In this document: one piece after another, positions 38,024 to 63,315 of the stretch | How positions within the stretch are numbered: position 1 is the stretch's first letter | Layout: each line of letters opens with the position of its first letter | NCBI RefSeq assembly: GCF_964213995.1 | Contig: NW_027590139.1 | Span: 992,001 to 1,056,000 of the forward strand | Reading direction: 5' to 3' | DNA from: Mustelus asterias | Taxonomy: Eukaryota | Length of the DNA stretch: 64,000 nucleotides | Notes under the pieces: generated by a model | Told to the model about the DNA's origin: nothing | The model's database searches: none | What the model saw: only the letters and a program-made list of their open reading frames with translations | Translations under genes and position numbers: made by a program

Positions 38024-38899
38024 TTACTTGTGAACTCGCTGGTGCCTCAGCTGTGTGGATGAACGACTGAATCTCTTTCCACACACTGAGCAAGGAAATG
38101 GCCTCTCCCCGGTGTGAACTCGCTGGTGTGTCAGCAGGGTGGACGACTGAGTGAATCCCTTCCCACACACTGAGCAGATGAACGGCCTCTCCCCAGTGTG
38201 ATTCCGCTGGTGATTAAGTAGGTTGGACATCCAAGTGAAGCCTTTCCCCCAGAAAAAGCAGGTGAAGGGTCTCTCCCTGTTATGAGTGAGTTGGTGCATC
38301 AGCAGATCCGTCTGGCTTTTAAAGTACTTCTCACAGTCAGGACATTTAAACAGCCTCTTATCAGTATGAACAAGTTGGTGTGTCAGTAGGTCGAATGAAC
38401 GGGTGAATCCCTTCCCACACACGGAGCAGGGGAACAGTCTCTCCCCAGTGTGAGTGCATTTATGGTTCAACAGATCATTTTTCCTTCTTTAGTTTTTCTC
38501 ACAGTCAGAACATTGGAAAGGTCTCTCCTCACTGTGGATTCGATGGTGTGACAGGAGGTGGGATGAGTTTGTGAAGTCTTTCCCACAGACGGAGCAGGTG
38601 AATGGTCTCTCCCCAGTGTGAACACGCCGGTGTCTTAGAAGGTGGGATGATTTAGTGAATCCTTTCTGACACACAGAGCAAGTGAATGGCCTCTCCTCAG
38701 TGTGACTGCGGTGATGAATATGTAACTCAGATGGGTAATCAAATCCCTTCCCCCAGTCTCCACATTTCCACGGTTTCTCACCAGTCAGACAGCACTTGTG
38801 TTTTGACAGGTTTGATGAGCGACTGAAACCTCGTCCACACACAGAACATGTAAACACCTTCTCCCCATTGTGAACGGTGCTTTTTGATTCCATGTTCAA
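38024..38899 (-). pseudogene. C2H2 zinc-finger gene 1, ~10 fingers, in-frame TAA at 38489-38491 and several Cys losses
   Basis: The two ORFs are in the same frame; HTGERPF linkers; acceptor AG at 39001-39002. Confidence 0.85.
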
Positions 38900-43661: not shown

Positions 43662-44714
43662 ATGGAAAAACCATGGAAATGTGGGGACTGTGGGAAGAGA
43701 TTCCAATCCCCGTCTGCACTCGAGAAACATTGACGCAGCCACACTGGGGAGCGCCCATTCACCTGCTCCAAATGTGGGAAGGGATTCACTCACTCATCGG
43801 CCCTCCTGACACATCAGCGAGTTCACACTGGGGAAAGGCCGTTCATCTGCTTTGTGTGTGGAAAGCGATTCTGTGATTCATCGGCCTTATTGGCACACCA
43901 GCATGTTCACACTGGGGAGAGGCCATTCACCTGCTCTGAGTGTGGGAAGGGATTCAGTCAATCAGCCAACCTGCAGACACACCAGCATGTTCACACTGGG
44001 GAGAAGCCATTCACCTGCTCTCAGTGTGGGAAGGGATTCAGTCAATCAGCCAACCTTCAGGCACACCAGCGAGTTCACACTGGGGAGAGGCCATTCACCT
44101 GCTCTCAGTGTGGGAAGGGATTCACTCGGTTGTCCAACCTGCAAACACACCAGCGAATTCACTCTGGGGAGAGACCGTTCACCTGCTCTGACTGTGGGAA
44201 AGGATTCAGTGATTCATCCAACCTGCTTACGCACCAGCGAATTCACACGGGGGAGAGGCCGTTCACCTGTTCTGACTGTGGGAAAGGATTCACTAATTCC
44301 TATAACCTGCTGAGACACCAGCGGATTCATACTGGCGAGAGGCCATTAACCTGCCCTGCTTATGGGAAGGGATTCATTAATTCCTACAACTTGCTGATAC
44401 ACCAGCGAGTTCACACTGGAGAGAGGCCATTCCCCTGCTCTGTGTGTGGGAAGGGATTCACTCAGTCATCCAACTTGCGGACACACCAACGAGTTCACTC
44501 TGGAGAGAGGCCGTTCACATGCACTAAGTGTGGGAAGGGATTCATTCAGTTATCCCATCTAACGACACACCAGCGAGTTCACACCGGGGAGAGACCATTC
44601 ACCTGCTCTGTGTGTGGGAAGCGATTCACACAGTCATCCACCCTGCTAACACACCAGCGAGTTCATAAGTTGGATTCTGCTGTTATTGCTGCTGTTAATC
44701 ACATCCAGGACTGA
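43662..44714 (+). pseudogene. C2H2 zinc-finger gene 2, ~12 fingers, in-frame TGA at 43731
   Basis: ATG 43662 ([10 protein letters not shown]) is in frame with ORF 43854-44714; the stop replaces the Arg of HRRSH; acceptor AG at 43331-43332. Confidence 0.8.
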
Positions 44715-48488: not shown

Positions 48489-50765
48489 AAGAACATAAGA
48501 ACATAAGAAATAGGAGCAGGAGTAGGCCATCTAACCCCTCGAGCCTGCCCCGCCATTCATCAAGATCATGGCTGATCTGAAGCGAATCAGTTCCACTTAC
48601 CCGCCTGCTCCCCATATCCCTTAATTCCCTTATCGATCAGAAATCTATCTACCCATGATTTAAACATATTTAATGAAGTAGCCTCCACCACTTCAATGGG
48701 CAGAGAATTCCAGAGATTCACTACCCTCTGAGAGACGAAGTTCCCCCTCAACTCTGTTCTGAACCAGCCCCCACTTATTTTGAGGCTGTGCCCTCTAGTT
48801 CTGGTTTCCCTTCTAAGTGGAAAGAACCTCTCTACCTCTACCCTATCCAGCCCCTTCATTATCTTATATGTCTCTATAAGATCACCCCTCAGCCTTCGAA
48901 ACTCCAACGAGTACAAACCCAATCTGTTCAATCTCTCCTCATAAGCTACACCCCTCATCACCGGTATCAACTTGGTGAACCTTGTCTGCACTCCCTCCAA
49001 GGCCAATATATCCTTTCGCAAATAAGGGGACCAAAATTGCACACAGTACTCCAGTTGCAGCCTCACTAGTGCCTTGTATAGTTGCAGCAAGACCTCCCTG
49101 CTTTTATACTCCATCCCCTTCGCGATAAAGGCCAACATTCCATTCGCCTTCTTGATCACCTGCTGCACCTGCAGACTGAGTTTTTGCGATTCGTGCACAA
49201 GGACCCCCAGGTCCCTCTGCACAGTAGCATGATGTAATTTTTCTCCATTTAAATAATATTCCAATTTACTATTATTTCTTCCAAAGTGGATAACCTCACA
49301 TTTGCCAACGTTATATTCCATCTGCCAGATCCTCGCCCACTCGCTCAGCCTATCCAAATCTCTCTGCAGACTTTCCGCGTCCTCCACACAATTCGCTTTC
49401 CCACTCATCTTCGTGTCATCAGCAAACTTTGATACCCTACACTCAGTCCCCTCCTCCAGATCATCTATGTAAATGATAAACAGTTGAGGCCCCAGCACCG
49501 ATCCCTGCGGCACGCCACTGGTCACCAACTGCCAACCAGAAAAGCACCCATTTATCCCAACTCTCTGCTTCCTGTTAGATAGCCAATCCCCAATCCACGC
49601 CAACACCTTACACCCAACTCCATGTACCCCAATCTTCTGCAGCAACCTTTTGTGAGGCACCTTATTGAATGCCTTCTGGAAATCTAAAAACACCACATCC
49701 ACCGGTTCCCCTCTGTCAACCGCACTAGTCACATCTTCATAAAGATCCAGTAAATTCATCAAACACGACTTTCCCTTCATGAATCCATGCTGCGTCTGCT
49801 TGATCGAACCATTCTTATCCAGGTGCTCTGCTATTTCCTCTTTAATGATGGACTTCAGCATCTTCCCAACTACGGACGTTAAGCTAACCGGCCTGTAGTT
49901 ACTCGCCTTTTGTCTACTTCCTTTTTTAAACAGCGGCGTAACAGTAGCTGTTTTCCAAAGAGCTGGCACTACCCCAGATTCCAGCGAATTTTGATAAGTA
50001 ACTACTAATGCATCTGCTATTACCTCAGCCATTTCTTTCAGTACCCTGGAATGCATTCCATCCGGGCCCAGGGACTTGTCTACCTTCAGTCCCATTAGTC
50101 TACCAAGCACTACCTCTGTAGTAACAGTAATTGTATTAAGGACCTCGCCTCCCACCAACTCTTGATCTCCAATATTCGGTAAACTATTTGTGTCTTCCAC
50201 CGTGAAGACCGACACAAAGAACTTATTTAAAGTCTCAGCCATTTCCTCGTTTTCCACTATTAAATCCCCCCTCTCGTCCTCCAAGGGTCCAACATTCACT
50301 CTAGCCACTCTATTCCTTTTTATATATTTGTAAAAACTTTTACTATAATTTTTTTTATTTTGAGCTAGTTTAGTTTCATAATCTATCTTTCCTTTCTTAA
50401 TCGCTTTCTTAGTCGTTCTTTGTTGTTTTTTAAAGCTTTCCCAATCCACTAATTCTCCACTATTTTTGGCCACTCTGTACGCATCTGTTTTTATTTTAAT
50501 ACTCTCCTTTATTTCCTTCGTTATCCACGTCTGGTTATCCCTTTTCTTACAGTCCTTCTTTATCACCGGAATATATTTTTGCTGAGTACTTAAAAAAATC
50601 TCCTTAAAAATCCTCCACTGTTCCTCAGCTGTCCTACCTACCAGTCTGCTCGCCCAGTCTACATTAGCCAATTCTGCCCTCATCCTATCGTACTCCCCTC
50701 TGTTCAAGCAGAGGACACTGGTTTGGGACCCTACTTTCTCACCCTCCATCTGTATCAGAAATTCT
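48489..50765 (-). mobile_element. 5'-truncated CR1 LINE with open ORF2 part (48587-50749)
   Basis: 720-aa ORF with PQGSVLGP and FADD; (TAAGAACA)n tail. Confidence 0.95.
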
Positions 50766-51848: not shown

Positions 51849-52169
51849 GAATTTCAAACTATAAACATCTGCTTCCTCCCTATCAATTGTAAGCCTAATT
51901 CTTTTGACCATCTTCCTTATTTTTCCCCAGTTCTCCCCCAAGGAAGCTACTGACTCTGGGGTTCAGTTTCACACTGAATTATTCCACTCCCCAGTATGTC
52001 ACCCAGGTGTCCAAATGTTTACACCTGAATTTAACAAACTGTTTGGCTAAGGCGGCGTCGCTATCAATTCCAGTGACTACCCAGATGTACATTATGTCCG
52101 GATGGGGTCACTTCGCCTCCTCCCCCATCCCATCCATCGCAGTCCCAGGTGTTTGGAGACTGGGCTCCG

Positions 52170-52499
52170 GCCGAGTAATGGCGGCCGTAACTCCCACAAT
52201 CCACCGCGCTGAGGAAATCGCTCTATTCGCTGAGTGGCACTGCGCATGATTAACAGAGAGAAGTGCTACGCATGTGCAGAGGATAGTGTTTCCCATTGGC
52301 CAACAGCTGAGAGCGACCCGGGGTCAAAGTGTCTCCCAGTCACTTCCGCTGCCCCATTGGTTTCATGAGGGGCATTAACCAATGGGAAGAGTTGGAGGAC
52401 TGGAAGACGCTTGGTCCTCCAGCCAATCGGAGTGCGGGCTTTGTGACAATGCAGATTGGATTTCAGACAGACTGAAACATCCTCCTGTCATCAACATCT
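52170..52499 (+). promoter_or_regulatory. CpG-rich promoter and non-coding exon 1 of ZNF gene 3
   Basis: ZNF143 consensus match CTCCCACAATCCACCGCG 52191-52208; ETS CACTTCCG 52341; four CCAAT/ATTGG boxes 52294-52427; GT donor at 52500. Confidence 0.7.
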
Positions 52500-52705
52500 G
52501 TCAGTAAAACACTTTGTTTTCTTCTCCTTTCTTTTTTCTCATTCTGGGGTTAAATTGGTGACTTGCAGCAACTGAAGGGAAAGGAAGTGAATCCAGGGAG
52601 CTGCAGACTCTGGAAAGGTTGGCCCAGGTCTCTCCCTCTTAAAGACATTGCCATCCTTTGCTTCCTCAACTTGGCACATTTATTTGTCTGGTTAAGAGGA
52701 TGGTC

Positions 52706-53022
52706 GGCCTTTTGGCTAAGATCAAGTGTAGTTATGCGGATGCTGCATTTGGTTGAGGTCATTGGGTTGCATTTAAGCTTCATTTTCATATGAAGCAATT
52801 TTTAAAAGTGGCATCTCGGCCTTTTGGCTAAGATGCAAATGAGACCAGGCCTTGGAGGAGGAAATCTCCGCCTACTCCAATCAGCTTGGCTCATGTAGAT
52901 CAGGCCCAAGACAGGGGAGAGGATTGCATGCCCTGTCTTGTCAGCCTGGATCGGAAATGTCTCAACTTGTTGAGACTCTGAATTGGATTTGATTTGATTG
53001 ATTGGAAAAGTATTTTTAAAAA
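52706..53022 (+). mobile_element. U2 snRNA-headed structured insertion with 26-bp flanking direct repeat
   Basis: U2 nt 9-37 at 52704-52732; second U2 stem-loop I at 52814-52834; direct repeat at 52680-52705 and 53023-53048. Confidence 0.7.
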
Positions 53023-54264
53023 TTATTTGTCTGGTTAAGAGGATGGTCTCTTTCCCAATGTTCACAATTTAAAGGGGTGATTTCCCGAGGAAATAGCTGA
53101 AATTTAAGGGGCAGTAAATTAATATAGGACAGAGATGTGTGCAGTCTTGTAATATGATACAAATTAGATATATTATGCATGGTCCAGTAATAAAGTTCAT
53201 TTTTTATTATTTTTAGTTTTGTTAATACTGTAACTAAGTAGTTTATTTTCAGTAATCGGGTTATTATATCACACAAGGAGTCCATTCAGCAACTCAAGTC
53301 CATGCTAACTCTCTGTAGAGCAATCCAGTCAGTCCCATTCCCCCTTAAGTTCATAAGATATAGGAGCATAATTAGGCTATTTGGCCCATCGAGTCCACTC
53401 CGCCATTCAATCATGGCTGATATGTTCCTCATCCCGTCTGTATCCCTGTTCCCCTGCCAGTCTATTTTGACTGCCCATCTAATTTCATTTTGAAATATTG
53501 AATGTATCAAAATGCACCACCCTCATAGCCAAAAAATTGATATTCAAGAACGTTCACTGTCGAAATAATGTTCTATCTCATAGCCTTGCTGTACTTCTAA
53601 TTATTAAACTGGTCCCCTATGTTACATACATTTTACTTCGCTAAGTATATTTAGGCATTTAGACTAGCAGCCTGCATGAAGATATCTCAGTGCTGGAGAA
53701 GAAGCAGTGAGCATGGATTTGTTGATCAGCATGAATCAACACCTTCAGGAGAATTGGAAGGGTGTATTATACATACAGCAGAGTGAGGATACAGGGATAG
53801 GGTGTGGGATGGAGATGTACAGATTCAGAGGAACAAGAAAGGAAAAAATGTTCCACGGAAACTAGAATTGTCTATTCTGAATTTCTGTTTGATACTGACA
53901 GTGATGACTTTTGTAAACTCATTTTACAGGAAGTTATAAGGGGAAGATTTGCTGCCAGCGATCTCAAAACATGTTAATGCTTAATAGAGTCACTCAAATT
54001 ATCAGAACCTGAATATCGTCAGACTTTGAATCGAGAAGAAGAAATATTTATCTGTTTTTTCTGTCACATCAGTGTGACTGGAAAGGCACCAAGAAACACA
54101 GGCCTGAGTGAGAGTGTCCAGTACACTGACTGTCAAAAGACCAGTTACACAGACTGCAAAAATATCACATCATTTACAGCGGGGACAGACAGTGCACATG
54201 CTCTATGTGTGGATGAGGATTTAACTGATTGTTAAACCTGGAAAGACACAAGGACATCCACACC

Positions 54265-55479
54265 ATGGAGAAACCGGGGAAAGATGAGGATTGTGGTAAG
54301 GAATTCCATATCCCGTCTGCACTGCAAACTCATCAACATATTCGCACTGGGGAGAGACTGTTCCCCTGCTCCAAGTGTGGGGAAGGAGACTGCTCCCCAT
54401 CTGCCCTGAAGATTCATCAATGCAGCCACACTGGGGAGAGGCCCTTCATCTGCTCTGAGTGTGGGAAGGGTTTTCTCCAGGCAGCCGACCTGTGGAATCA
54501 CCAAGCAGTTCACAGTAGGGAGAGGCTGTACACCTGCTCTGAGTGTGGGAAGGGATTCACTCAGTTATCCCACCTGCTGACACACCAGCAAGTTCACACT
54601 GGGGAAAAACCATTCAACTGCTCTGAGTGTGGGAAGCAATTCAATCATTCATCTGAACTTTTGAATCACCAACAAATCCACACCGGAGAGCGACCATTCA
54701 CCTGCTCCGACTGTGGAAAGGGTTTCACTCAGTCATCTCACCTGCAGATACACCAGCGAGCCCACACTAAGGAGAGGCCTTTCAACTGCTCTGAGTGCGG
54801 GAAGTGTTTTATTCAATTATCACACCTAGTGACTCACCAGGGAGTCCACAGGGGGGAGAGGCCGTTCCCCTGCTCCGAGTGTGGGAAGCGTTTTATTCAG
54901 TTATCACATCTAGTGACACACAAAGGAACACACACAAGGGAGAGGCCATTCAGCTGCCCCGAATGTGGGAAACGTTTTATCCAATCGTCACACCTAATGT
55001 CACACCAGGGAGTTCACAGCAGGGAGAGGCCATTCGTCTGCTCCGAGTGTGGGAGGCGTTTTATTCAATCATCCCACCTAGTGTCACACCAGGAGGTTCA
55101 CACCAGGGAGAGGCCATTTACCTGTTCCGAGTGTGGCAGGGGATTCATTCAGTTATCTGACCTGCAGAATCACCAGCAAGTTCACACCGGGGAGAGGCCG
55201 TTCACCTGCTCTGAGTGTGGGAAGGGATTTACTCGTTCAGCTAACCTGCAGGCACACCGACGTGTTCACACCAGGGAGAGACCATTCACCTGCTCTGAGT
55301 GTGGGAAAGGATTCGCTCTTTCATCTTATCTGCAGAGTCACCAGCAAGTTCACACTGGAGAGAGGCCGTTTATCTGCTCTGAGTGTGGAAAGGGATTCAT
55401 TCAGTCATCCCACCTGCAGACACACCAACGAGTTCACAAGGATTCACAAAGGGATTCACTCAGTCATCCCACCTGCTGA
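54265..55479 (+). CDS. C2H2 zinc-finger protein 3, 13 canonical fingers plus 1 degenerate, no effector domain in this exon
   Basis: Kozak accATGg at 54265; uninterrupted ORF; acceptor AG at 53928-53929; upstream promoter. Confidence 0.85.
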
Positions 55480-61930: not shown

Positions 61931-63315
61931 TCAGTCCTGCATGGGATTAGCAGCAACAGCAGAATCCAACCCCTGCAGTGACTTGTGAACTTGCTGGTGT
62001 CTCAGCAGATTGGCTGACCGAGCAAATCTCTTCCCACATACGGAGCAGGTGAACGATCTCTCTCCCGTGTGAACCTGCTGGTGTCTCAGCAGGTGGGATG
62101 ACTGAGTGAACCTTTTCCCACACATGGAGCAGGTGAATGATCTCTCCCCAGTGTGAATTTGCTGGTGTCTCAGCAGGTCCTTCGTGCTTTTAAAGCTCTT
62201 CTCACAGTCAGAACATTTAAAAGGTCTCTGATCAGTGTGGACCAGTTGATGTGCAATGAGCTGGGGTGGCTGAGTGAATCGTTTCCCACATGTGGAGCAA
62301 GTGAAGGGTTTCTCCCCAGTGTGAATTCGCTCGTGTATCAGAAGCTGGGCTGAATCAGTGAATCCCTTCCCACACACACAGTGCAAATGAATGGCTTCTC
62401 CCCGGTGTGAACTCGCTGGTGTCTCAGACAGTGGGATGAATGGGTGAATCCCATCCCACACACCGAGCAGGTGAACGGTTTCTCCCCGGTGTGAACTCGC
62501 TGGTGTCTCAGACGGTGGGATGAATGGGTGAATCCCATCCCACACACCGAGCAGGTGAACGGTTTCTCCCCAGTGTGAACTCGCTGGTGTCTCAGACAGT
62601 GGGATGAATGGGTGAATCCCATCCCACACACCGAGCAGGTGAACGGTTTCTCCCCAGTGTGAACTCGCTGGTGTGTCACCAAATCCTGTTTACTTTTAAA
62701 GCTCTTCTCACAGTCAGAACACTGAAATGGTCTCTTATCAGAGTGAACTCGCTGGTGTGTTTGCAGCTGGGATAAACGTCCGAATCTCCTCTCACATACG
62801 GAGCAGGTGAATGGCTTCTCCCCAGTGTGAGTGCGCTGATGGACTTGTAAATCATTTTTACTTTTAAATCTCTTCTCACAGTCAGAACACTGAAATGGTC
62901 TCCGATCAGTGTGAACAAGTTGGTGTGTCAGAAGGTGGGATGACTGAGTGAATCCCTTCCCACACACTGAGCAGGTGAACGGTCTCACCGCCATGTGAGT
63001 GCGCTGGTGTCTCAGGAGGTCCTTTGTGCTTTTAAAGCTTTTCTCACAATCAGAACACTGAAACAGTCTCTGATCGGAGTGAACCTCCCGGTGAATCAGG
63101 AGGCTTGATAAAGCATGACATCCCCTCCCACATTCGAGGCAGGTGAACGGCCTCTCACCAGTGTGAACACGCCGGTGTGTATAGAGGCTGGATGAGTAAG
63201 CAAATCCTTTCCCACACTCAGAGCAGGTGAACGGCCTCTCTCCAGTGTGAATGCGACGATGAATATCCAATTCGGACGGGTAATTGAATCCCCTCCCACA
63301 GTCCACACATTTCAA
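61931..63315 (-). pseudogene. C2H2 zinc-finger gene 4, ~16 fingers, frameshift in a (CA)5 run at ~62371-62380, usual start ATG not seen
   Basis: Overlapping ORFs 62338-63315 and 61931-62629 switch frame at CTVC-VG; acceptor at ~63676. Confidence 0.75.

Follow-up and report, generated by a model that had tools for sequence, protein, structure and literature searches.

A U2-headed SINE of Mustelus asterias: its conserved predicted fold, its likely Tx1 partner and copies joined to U2 promoters

The window analysed here is a stretch of 64,000 nucleotides of the Mustelus asterias genome (contig NW_027590139.1, positions 992,001 to 1,056,000 of the forward strand), in which an initial annotation had described five consecutive hairpins inside a U2-headed element. 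With good confidence, these hairpins are read as the conserved predicted fold of a SINE for which a Keno-type Tx1 LINE is the likely copying partner; its RNA likely comes from source copies joined to a U2 promoter. The initial annotation had not placed the hairpins in such a SINE, which is the context that explains them.

The element in the window and its family

The window element is a U2-headed SINE of about 320 nt, and its parts, from 5' to 3', are the following.

52680-52705, forward strand: left target site duplication (TSD), 26 nt, whose final 2 nt overlap the start of the element; 100% identical to 53023-53048
52704-52732, forward strand: first U2 head, corresponding to U2 nt 9-37, a 100% match to the U2 genes of the same genome
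52705-52769, forward strand: hairpin H0, predicted to form between the U2 head and an inverted U2 11-37 copy (52742-52769)
52777-52796, forward strand: hairpin 1, with a loop that is long, short or deleted, depending on the subfamily
52797-52807, forward strand: A/U tract, similar to an Sm site but without the closing G (from column counts; the Sm pattern is unmatched)
52811-52836, forward strand: hairpin 2, the second U2 head, with stem-loop I lengthened by changes in both arms
52833-52840, forward strand: octamer, overlapping the 3' arm of hairpin 2
52840-52893, forward strand: hairpin 3, a module with a 1x3 C/UCA internal loop
52898-52952, forward strand: hairpin 4, a module with a C/YCA loop and an upper loop that defines subfamilies A-E
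52959-52976, forward strand: hairpin 5, likely from the U2 hairpin at nt ~68-84 via F2, by F2-to-U2 alignment
52977-53004, forward strand: U/G-rich linker, homologous to the F2 stretch ahead of F2's Sm-like site
53005-53022, forward strand: 3' end, made of AAAGTA, a T run and a short A tail, like the last bases of the Tx1 partner; no AATAAA precedes it
53023-53048, forward strand: right TSD, identical to the left one

The first 8 nt of U2 are absent from this copy; many others begin at U2 +1, and their 3' end is a short A/T tail. The second head matches U2 at 23 of 24 positions, and the A/U tract between the two heads may be the former tail of a 5' monomer. No open reading frame of at least 120 aa runs across the element, and neither U2 promoter motif was found on its contig. 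Two near-identical loci, on contigs C669 and C71, have the same TSD and the same flanks. From splice sites placed by eye, the copy appears to lie in sense orientation in an intron upstream of a zinc-finger reading frame at 54265; devoid of a promoter, it is probably an inert insertion.

The surroundings have features of their own. C2H2 zinc-finger arrays built of 84-bp repeats occur on both strands (38029-38277, 43740-44665, 54265-55479 and 61984-63300), and a CCAAT-rich, promoter-like stretch lies at ~52160-52450, upstream of the 54265 frame. On the reverse strand, positions 48587-50749 hold a 720-aa open frame with reverse-transcriptase-like motifs, a LINE of CR1/L2 type as judged by eye.

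How large is the family? A first look at the 3.68-Gb genome gave 2,626 candidates, with 94-97% identity for the best dispersed copies. Exact matches to an internal 26-mer number 4,543 (0 for the reversed control); since the 26-mer is exact in 53 of 75 copies chosen independently of it, the family can be put at ~6,400 copies as a rough estimate. At 58 of 83 loci there is a TSD of 7-26 nt (median 12), some of the 7-nt calls being due to chance, and at the other 25 none was found. The features of the SINEU class are thus all present: a U2 head (9-37 exact), a length below 500 bp, a non-coding body, an A tail, a TSD and many copies of one structure.

As for transcription, the window copy contains five T4-T5 runs and no match to a B-box pattern. 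Among at least 18 sequencing runs, searched as contigs only, the fraction of element words was 0.32-0.50 in six runs from three organisms and at most 0.11 in ten, values that give no evidence of expression or of range.

The fold, its conservation and its ancestry

The five hairpins lie exactly where they had been placed. The segment 52777-52976 folds at -86.7 kcal/mol, against -58.3 +/- 4.2 for its shuffles (z = -6.73; none of 200 was as stable), and its minimum-energy fold includes all five. The description of the second U2 head, with an extended stem altered on both arms relative to U2, and of the octamer at 52833-52840 proved correct as well. An additional hairpin, H0, had gone unreported; its pair probability exceeds 0.5 in 96 of 103 copies, and its loop differs between subfamilies. 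Of the 13 differences between its inverted arm and the exact complement, 10 are A>G or C>T (counted by eye), changes that still allow G-U pairing in RNA. The U2 segment in the head is the one that pairs with the branch point in splicing, and H0 is predicted to bury it. Only one weak match to the Sm pattern was seen in the window copy, at 52986, and the main family has no canonical one at the U2 position.

Conservation was judged on 107 aligned units, partial units and duplicate loci being excluded. In 18 sampled units the folding z-score ranged from -3.7 to -9.6. In the full-length RNA, H0, hairpins 1-3, the upper part of hairpin 4 and hairpin 5 have pair probabilities above 0.5 in 83-105 of about 107 copies. 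For hairpin 4, therefore, the upper part stands as first drawn, whereas the bottom four pairs are weakly predicted (above 0.5 in 33 of 107). An alternative suggested by RNAalifold, in which the 3' arm of hairpin 3 pairs with the tail, is ruled out, exceeding 0.5 in 1 of 107 copies. Over the alignment, 98.0% of cells pair, against 28-39% when the partners are slid, for a structure derived from these same sequences.

The initial annotation had proposed selection on RNA structure, and the substitutions agree with it. Unpaired columns are fourfold more variable than stems (15.6% against 3.9%), and the pair is kept by 15 of the 21 stem variants common to at least five copies, against 39 of the 124 rare ones (p = 0.001). 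Subfamilies differ wholesale in their upper loops but keep the stems and the C/(U/C)CA loop. In hairpin 3 the lone C of the internal loop is present in 100 of 107 copies, and the opposite U, C and A in 107, 107 and 106.

The claim that hairpins 3 and 4 share a motif holds in the form that the family has, ARGY-C-(6 bp)..(6 bp)-YCA-GCYUGG, but the exact CAGGCC match is partly private to the window copy; across the family, position 52848 is A in 101 of 107 copies and position 52845 is T in 98 of 107. Above the loop, hairpin 3 has the six pairs UA, UA, GC, GC, AU and GC; hairpin 4 has CG, AU, AU, GC, AU and CG; and the module of F2, a related family described below, has CG, AU, AU, GC, AU and UA. 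Between hairpins 3 and 4, four of the six differ on both strands (in this comparison, 7 of 91 hairpin-3 rows were mis-captures of hairpin 4), and despite these two-sided changes neither the lone C nor the YCA strand is altered in any of the three modules. Inside the family, two-sided covariation is weak, affecting 4 of 70 pairs and equalled by 242 of 500 shuffles. As the aligned sequences stand, the clearer compensation is between paralogous modules and not within the family.

Three of the 107 copies are hyper-mutated from A to G: their A>G changes number 15, 9 and 8, and each has a single T>C. Hyper-mutated copies lie at L022:1152-1486, L096:1079-1419 and L069:1490-1827. The rate is lowest after G, which is the neighbour-base preference of the editing enzyme, and the pattern fits A-to-I editing of a folded RNA before it was copied.

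Where did the hairpins come from? Where the main U2 array ends there is a simpler element, in which a U2 head is followed by a single module, a single hairpin, an Sm-like site and a 3' part resembling U2; its score on the U2 model is 45.5 bits. This element is a member of a second family, F2, of ~225 nt and 2,074 candidates (L240-L269; query L222:256-420; C24:43078855); 30 copies of F2 show 91-96% identity to the majority sequence derived from them. At L222:~1040, some 600 nt downstream of this array-end copy, a THAP-like reading frame begins, as seen by eye.

None of 500 shuffles aligned as well as the F2 body does to U2 38-191, and one of 500 as well as its module and hairpin do to U2 38-85, an alignment that places the UCA at U2 nt 48-50; the 3' arm of the F2 module aligns to U2 nt ~40-67. 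In turn, the main family from hairpin 4 to the tail aligns to F2 better than any of 500 shuffles. Through these two steps hairpins 4 and 5 trace back to U2, to nt ~40-85, by the F2 link only: compared directly with U2 38-191, the 3' body of the main family is not above shuffles (198 of 500). The counterpart of hairpin 5, at U2 nt ~68-84, we take to be stem-loop IIb. The linker (52977-53004) aligns as a descendant of F2 in the same way. Hairpin 3 is probably a duplicate of hairpin 4, with a modest sequence match (17 of 500 shuffles as good). F2 is older than the main family, whose 5' part, which holds H0 and hairpin 1, is likely a later addition. For hairpin 1 no match above shuffles to U2 38-191 or to U4 was found, and a U4 origin was rejected for every part (193 and 279 of 500 shuffles).

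Targets, the likely Tx1 partner and the U2 arrays

Target preference was assessed at 35 of the 58 sites with a TSD, those with a duplication of at least 10 nt beginning with A. On average 4.2 of 11 positions match the U2 site, against 2.72 expected, a value reached in none of 5,000 resamplings; A occupies position -3 in 25 of 35 and a pyrimidine position -1 in 31 of 35. Read from these sites, the preference resembles the Keno site, U2 nt 37/38. An L1-type TT/AAAA target was rejected, TT occurring at -2/-1 in only 3 of 35. Three antisense insertions (L008, L054, L096) place a SINE within another copy, at the U2-like site in the inverted arm of H0.

A LINE inserted in one of the U2 arrays at nt 37/38, with a 21-nt TSD, encodes a CCHC ORF1, an endonuclease, a reverse transcriptase (RT) and a zf-RVT domain. 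Over the RT region it shares 47% identity with a zebrafish protein that bears the name transposon TX1 149 kDa, and full-length copies carry a U2 head. In PMC4494074 and PMC4640811, the LINE with an AP endonuclease that inserts at this U2 site is Keno. The partner is thus likely a Keno-type Tx1 LINE, placed by its site and by the endonuclease and RT match. A 23-mer from its tail occurs 320 times, and the LINE also inserts widely outside U2.

How close are the two elements? Among 30 unselected Tx1-tail loci, six tails abut a SINE in the same orientation and two more loci hold another Tx1 piece that does; several of these neighbours have shared TSDs. At the SINE density of about one per 0.6-0.8 Mb, almost no abutment is expected by chance. 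The common target and these mixed stacks point to a SINE that is likely mobilised by a Tx1-clade LINE. An unbroken ORF2 was found in none of seven dispersed near-full-length Tx1 copies, nor in the array copy at L073. The SINE does not align to the Tx1 UTRs above shuffles (120 and 30 of 500), and an origin from the 5' or 3' UTR was rejected; an 8-mer that hairpin 5 has in common with the beginning of the Tx1 3' UTR is, by estimate, no more than chance would give. The UTRs themselves fold weakly (z = -2.4 and -1.6).

The U2 genes of this genome lie in arrays on contig C24, and a second gene family, U2-II, forms a ~449-nt repeat on C21 that scores 170-175 bits and is ~90% identical to the main U2, with a different spacer. 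In what follows, U2 promoter elements are candidates judged by position and consensus. At L219-L224 (C21:28.05-28.08 Mb), half of the eight U2-II junctions are interrupted by Tx1 or SINE. One of them, on the minus strand of L220 (6532-6215), carries a complete SINE that meets the U2-II spacer at +1 and is followed by U2 38-185; the joint is seamless because the SINE head is identical to U2 1-37. This copy is 96.9% identical to its nearest sampled relative and has stem mismatches, so that it need not be the present source. In the main arrays a SINE stands behind the U2-I promoter motif at one of 62 places, most of which were judged by spacing: at L178 the promoter and U2 1-39 lead into a damaged SINE, after which come a truncated Tx1, another SINE and finally U2 38-191, these parts being separated by the U2 TSD. 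The head variant of the window copy was found directly behind the U2-I promoter at 0 places, and four promoter-like places outside the U2-I arrays have no SINE directly behind them.

A 22-mer across the U2-II junction occurs at 15 places, eight in the array (four U2, three Tx1, one SINE) and seven dispersed (six SINE, one Tx1); direct repeats flank three dispersed units with junction DNA, L186, L225 and L226. The six dispersed SINEs with U2-II upstream DNA have different head-loop variants, from which we infer that several subfamilies stood behind the U2-II promoter and that read-through RNA of the array was retroposed.

The arrays also bear traces of their own turnover. At L073 (C24:44.81-44.94 Mb), an 8,035-bp repeat of 16 units carries in each an intact U2 gene and a broken Keno-type Tx1 within a promoterless U2 remnant, the LINE having been amplified together with the array. 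At L215 and L216 (C24:43.02-43.05 Mb), at least six U2 array copies share one rearrangement at the Keno site, a short head repeat after nt 37; such rearrangements are possibly insertion scars spread by homogenisation.

Stacking is frequent: at 23 of 83 loci there are 2-6 units with one and the same TSD between them. When 39 adjacent pairs were typed by the hairpin 4 loop, 24 stood in one order and none against it, 10 were of the same type and 5 could not be typed. From 5' to 3' the order is A, A2, B, C, D, E, with the most diverged, D and E, lying 3'; it was read from the same data on which it was tested, and by a nearest-neighbour proxy of age the 3' unit is older in only 15 of 21 arrays. From the one-way order, it appears that new copies insert at the 5' TSD of those already present. 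In the available account of Kojima 2015 (PMC4494074), tandem SINEU-3 copies sandwiching a TSD are noted and no ordering is described.

A proposed cycle, its rivals and related elements

How could elements without a promoter be transcribed? The likely answer lies in the copies found in U2 genes, immediately downstream of the promoter. In the proposed cycle, the Tx1 protein would insert the SINE at U2 nt 37/38. The U2 head of the SINE equals the first 37 nt of the target, so that the joining would rebuild a promoter-driven, full-length source gene, whose RNA would be made by the U2 promoter. Tx1 would then scatter copies to relaxed, U2-like sites, most of them, including the window copy, without a promoter. 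What of the fold? There is about an even chance that H0 and hairpin 2 would lock away the splicing segments of U2 and that the C/YCA module, present twice, would be a protein-binding or stability element selected in the source copies.

A bolder version, rather doubtful when its parts are taken jointly, would make the RNA a counterfeit snRNP. The source RNA would start at the U2 promoter and run through the A tract into U2 38-191, gaining an Sm site, a cap and export and re-import; H0 and hairpin 2 would disable the splicing segments, and the C/YCA loops, from U2 nt 48-50, would recruit Tx1 proteins. Reverse transcription would start at the internal A tract, the resident U2 head would help to draw the next insertion to its 5' side, and the stack would be a dated record of subfamilies.

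Several other readings compete with transcription from promoter-fused copies under selection for the fold. The SINE could be mobilised by Tx1 and yet be transcribed from an internal promoter, such as the octamer, or from a flanking transcript, the U2 fusions reflecting target preference only. The octamer is intact in 97 of 107 copies, there are thousands of copies against few that are promoter-fused, and flanking transcription was proposed for crocodilian SINEU in Kojima 2015 (PMC4494074). However, many dispersed copies start exactly at U2 +1, six carry U2-II upstream DNA, the T4-T5 runs and the missing B-box match speak against Pol III, and the octamer is conserved no better than its neighbours, which makes this reading unlikely. 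Slightly less likely still is that the hairpins of the SINE are unselected by-products of fold-back copying, tandem duplication and A-to-I editing, which turns A-U into G-U. H0 is indeed an inverted copy of the head, two-sided change affects only the 4 of 70 pairs mentioned, hyper-edited copies exist and six of the shared stem variants are A>G. Yet the bias toward keeping the pair persists once A>G changes are set aside (9 of 15 against 21 of 105, p = 0.002); in G-C pairs the pair-keeping C>T occurs 133 times and the pair-breaking G>A 46 times, in copies that are not independent; upper loops are swapped wholesale with the stems retained; and the internal loop is kept in hairpin 3, hairpin 4 and F2 despite two-sided changes in the stems.

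The initial annotation had also offered a variant snRNA and a ribozyme. For the window copy the former fails: it has a TSD and no U2 promoter motif on its contig, and it scores 22.6 bits against a cut-off of 46. Could the copies instead be retropseudogenes of a functional, U2-derived variant snRNA of the host, whose fold is selected for a host job? This is very improbable. The strongly conserved fold, the existence of copies fused to U2 promoters, the Sm-like site retained by F2 and the U2 score of its array-end copy would suit it, but successive subfamilies replace one another, the copies fused to promoters break up U2 as insertions at the Tx1 site and form no stable gene array, the branch-point segment is predicted to be buried, and the main family lacks a canonical Sm site at the U2 position. 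The least credible reading, hardly to be entertained, makes the structured region a self-cleaving ribozyme by which the element would be released from a longer transcript, on the pattern of R2 and its SIDEs. A compact multi-hairpin fold in a non-LTR element dependent on a host transcription unit invites the comparison, but the hairpins stand in a row without a multiway junction, and no cleavage would be needed because the 5' end of the element coincides with the U2 start site. Rfam returned nothing at gathering score in the window and, at E <= 10, one sub-threshold U2 match and chance matches, none of them a ribozyme; the hammerhead core that had been reported absent is indeed missing from the window copy and from all 107 copies searched.

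Set against known systems, the SINE, with its likely Tx1 partner, works like the crocodilian SINEU and, living off a host RNA gene, like the SIDEs of R2; it belongs neither to the crocodilian families nor to the internally deleted LINEs. As described in PMC4494074, SINEU-1, -2 and -3 likewise have a U2-derived head, repeated U2 pieces, an A tail, internal oligo-T and tandem copies sandwiching the TSD, with a Tx1 partner inferred from the common target and Tx1 families with snRNA heads; F2 resembles in design SINEU-3, an altered U2. There, Kojima 2015 found no SINEU outside crocodilians and gave Mariner-N4_AMi as the target. Here, in contrast, the target is the U2 gene, judged by likeness to U2 nt 37/38 and by the copies in U2 genes, and promoter-fused copies, transduced promoter DNA and a conserved multi-hairpin body are present, unlike in SINEU as described there. 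The SINE and the crocodilian SINEU presumably arose independently. Among the papers listed by literature searches, none deals with a U2-headed SINE in a cartilaginous fish.

The comparison with LINEs gives a similar picture. Keno, as presented in PMC4494074 and PMC4640811, shares with the partner LINE the AP-type endonuclease and the U2 site, which the SINE also uses, with shared TSDs; unlike Keno, the SINE lacks an ORF, and apart from its last ~12 nt no Tx1 UTR sequence can be detected in it. The SIDEs of R2 and the hybrid SIDEs of R2/R1 (PMC3414825, Eickbush and Eickbush 2012) are also non-autonomous, sit in a multicopy RNA gene at the site of the LINE and rely on the host transcription unit. 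They are built from LINE ends with a ribozyme, whereas the SINE consists of U2-derived and unassigned sequence with no known ribozyme and would start at the host start site. The identity of a SIDE, that is, an internally deleted LINE, was rejected on the same UTR alignments as above (120 and 30 of 500 shuffles).

These features matter beyond one family. Kojima 2015 (PMC4494074) left open the transcription of U1- and U2-headed SINEs without an internal promoter, and the architecture seen here, with SINEs fused to U2 promoters at +1 and dispersed copies carrying upstream DNA, would answer it. The F2 intermediates show a stepwise remodelling of a spliceosomal RNA into a structured mobile RNA, and the ordered stacks offer a relative clock for subfamilies.

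The internal loops of hairpins 3 and 4 share, in the predicted fold, the geometry of the C-loop, an asymmetric 1x3 loop with a lone C opposite three bases in a hairpin, described as a protein-binding motif in PMC9516175 and PMC2952876. The first loop base has to suit the trans WC/Hoogsteen pair, and by the rule given in the former a C-G closing pair requires C there, which fits only the CCA variant (9 of 107 copies in hairpin 4 and 2 of 30 in F2). Lastly, extra U2 5' fragments, extending to nt ~48-59, precede SINE, F2 or Tx1 copies at L057, L152, L153, L226, L228 and L242, and they are like the 5' extensions of the crocodilian SINEU-2.
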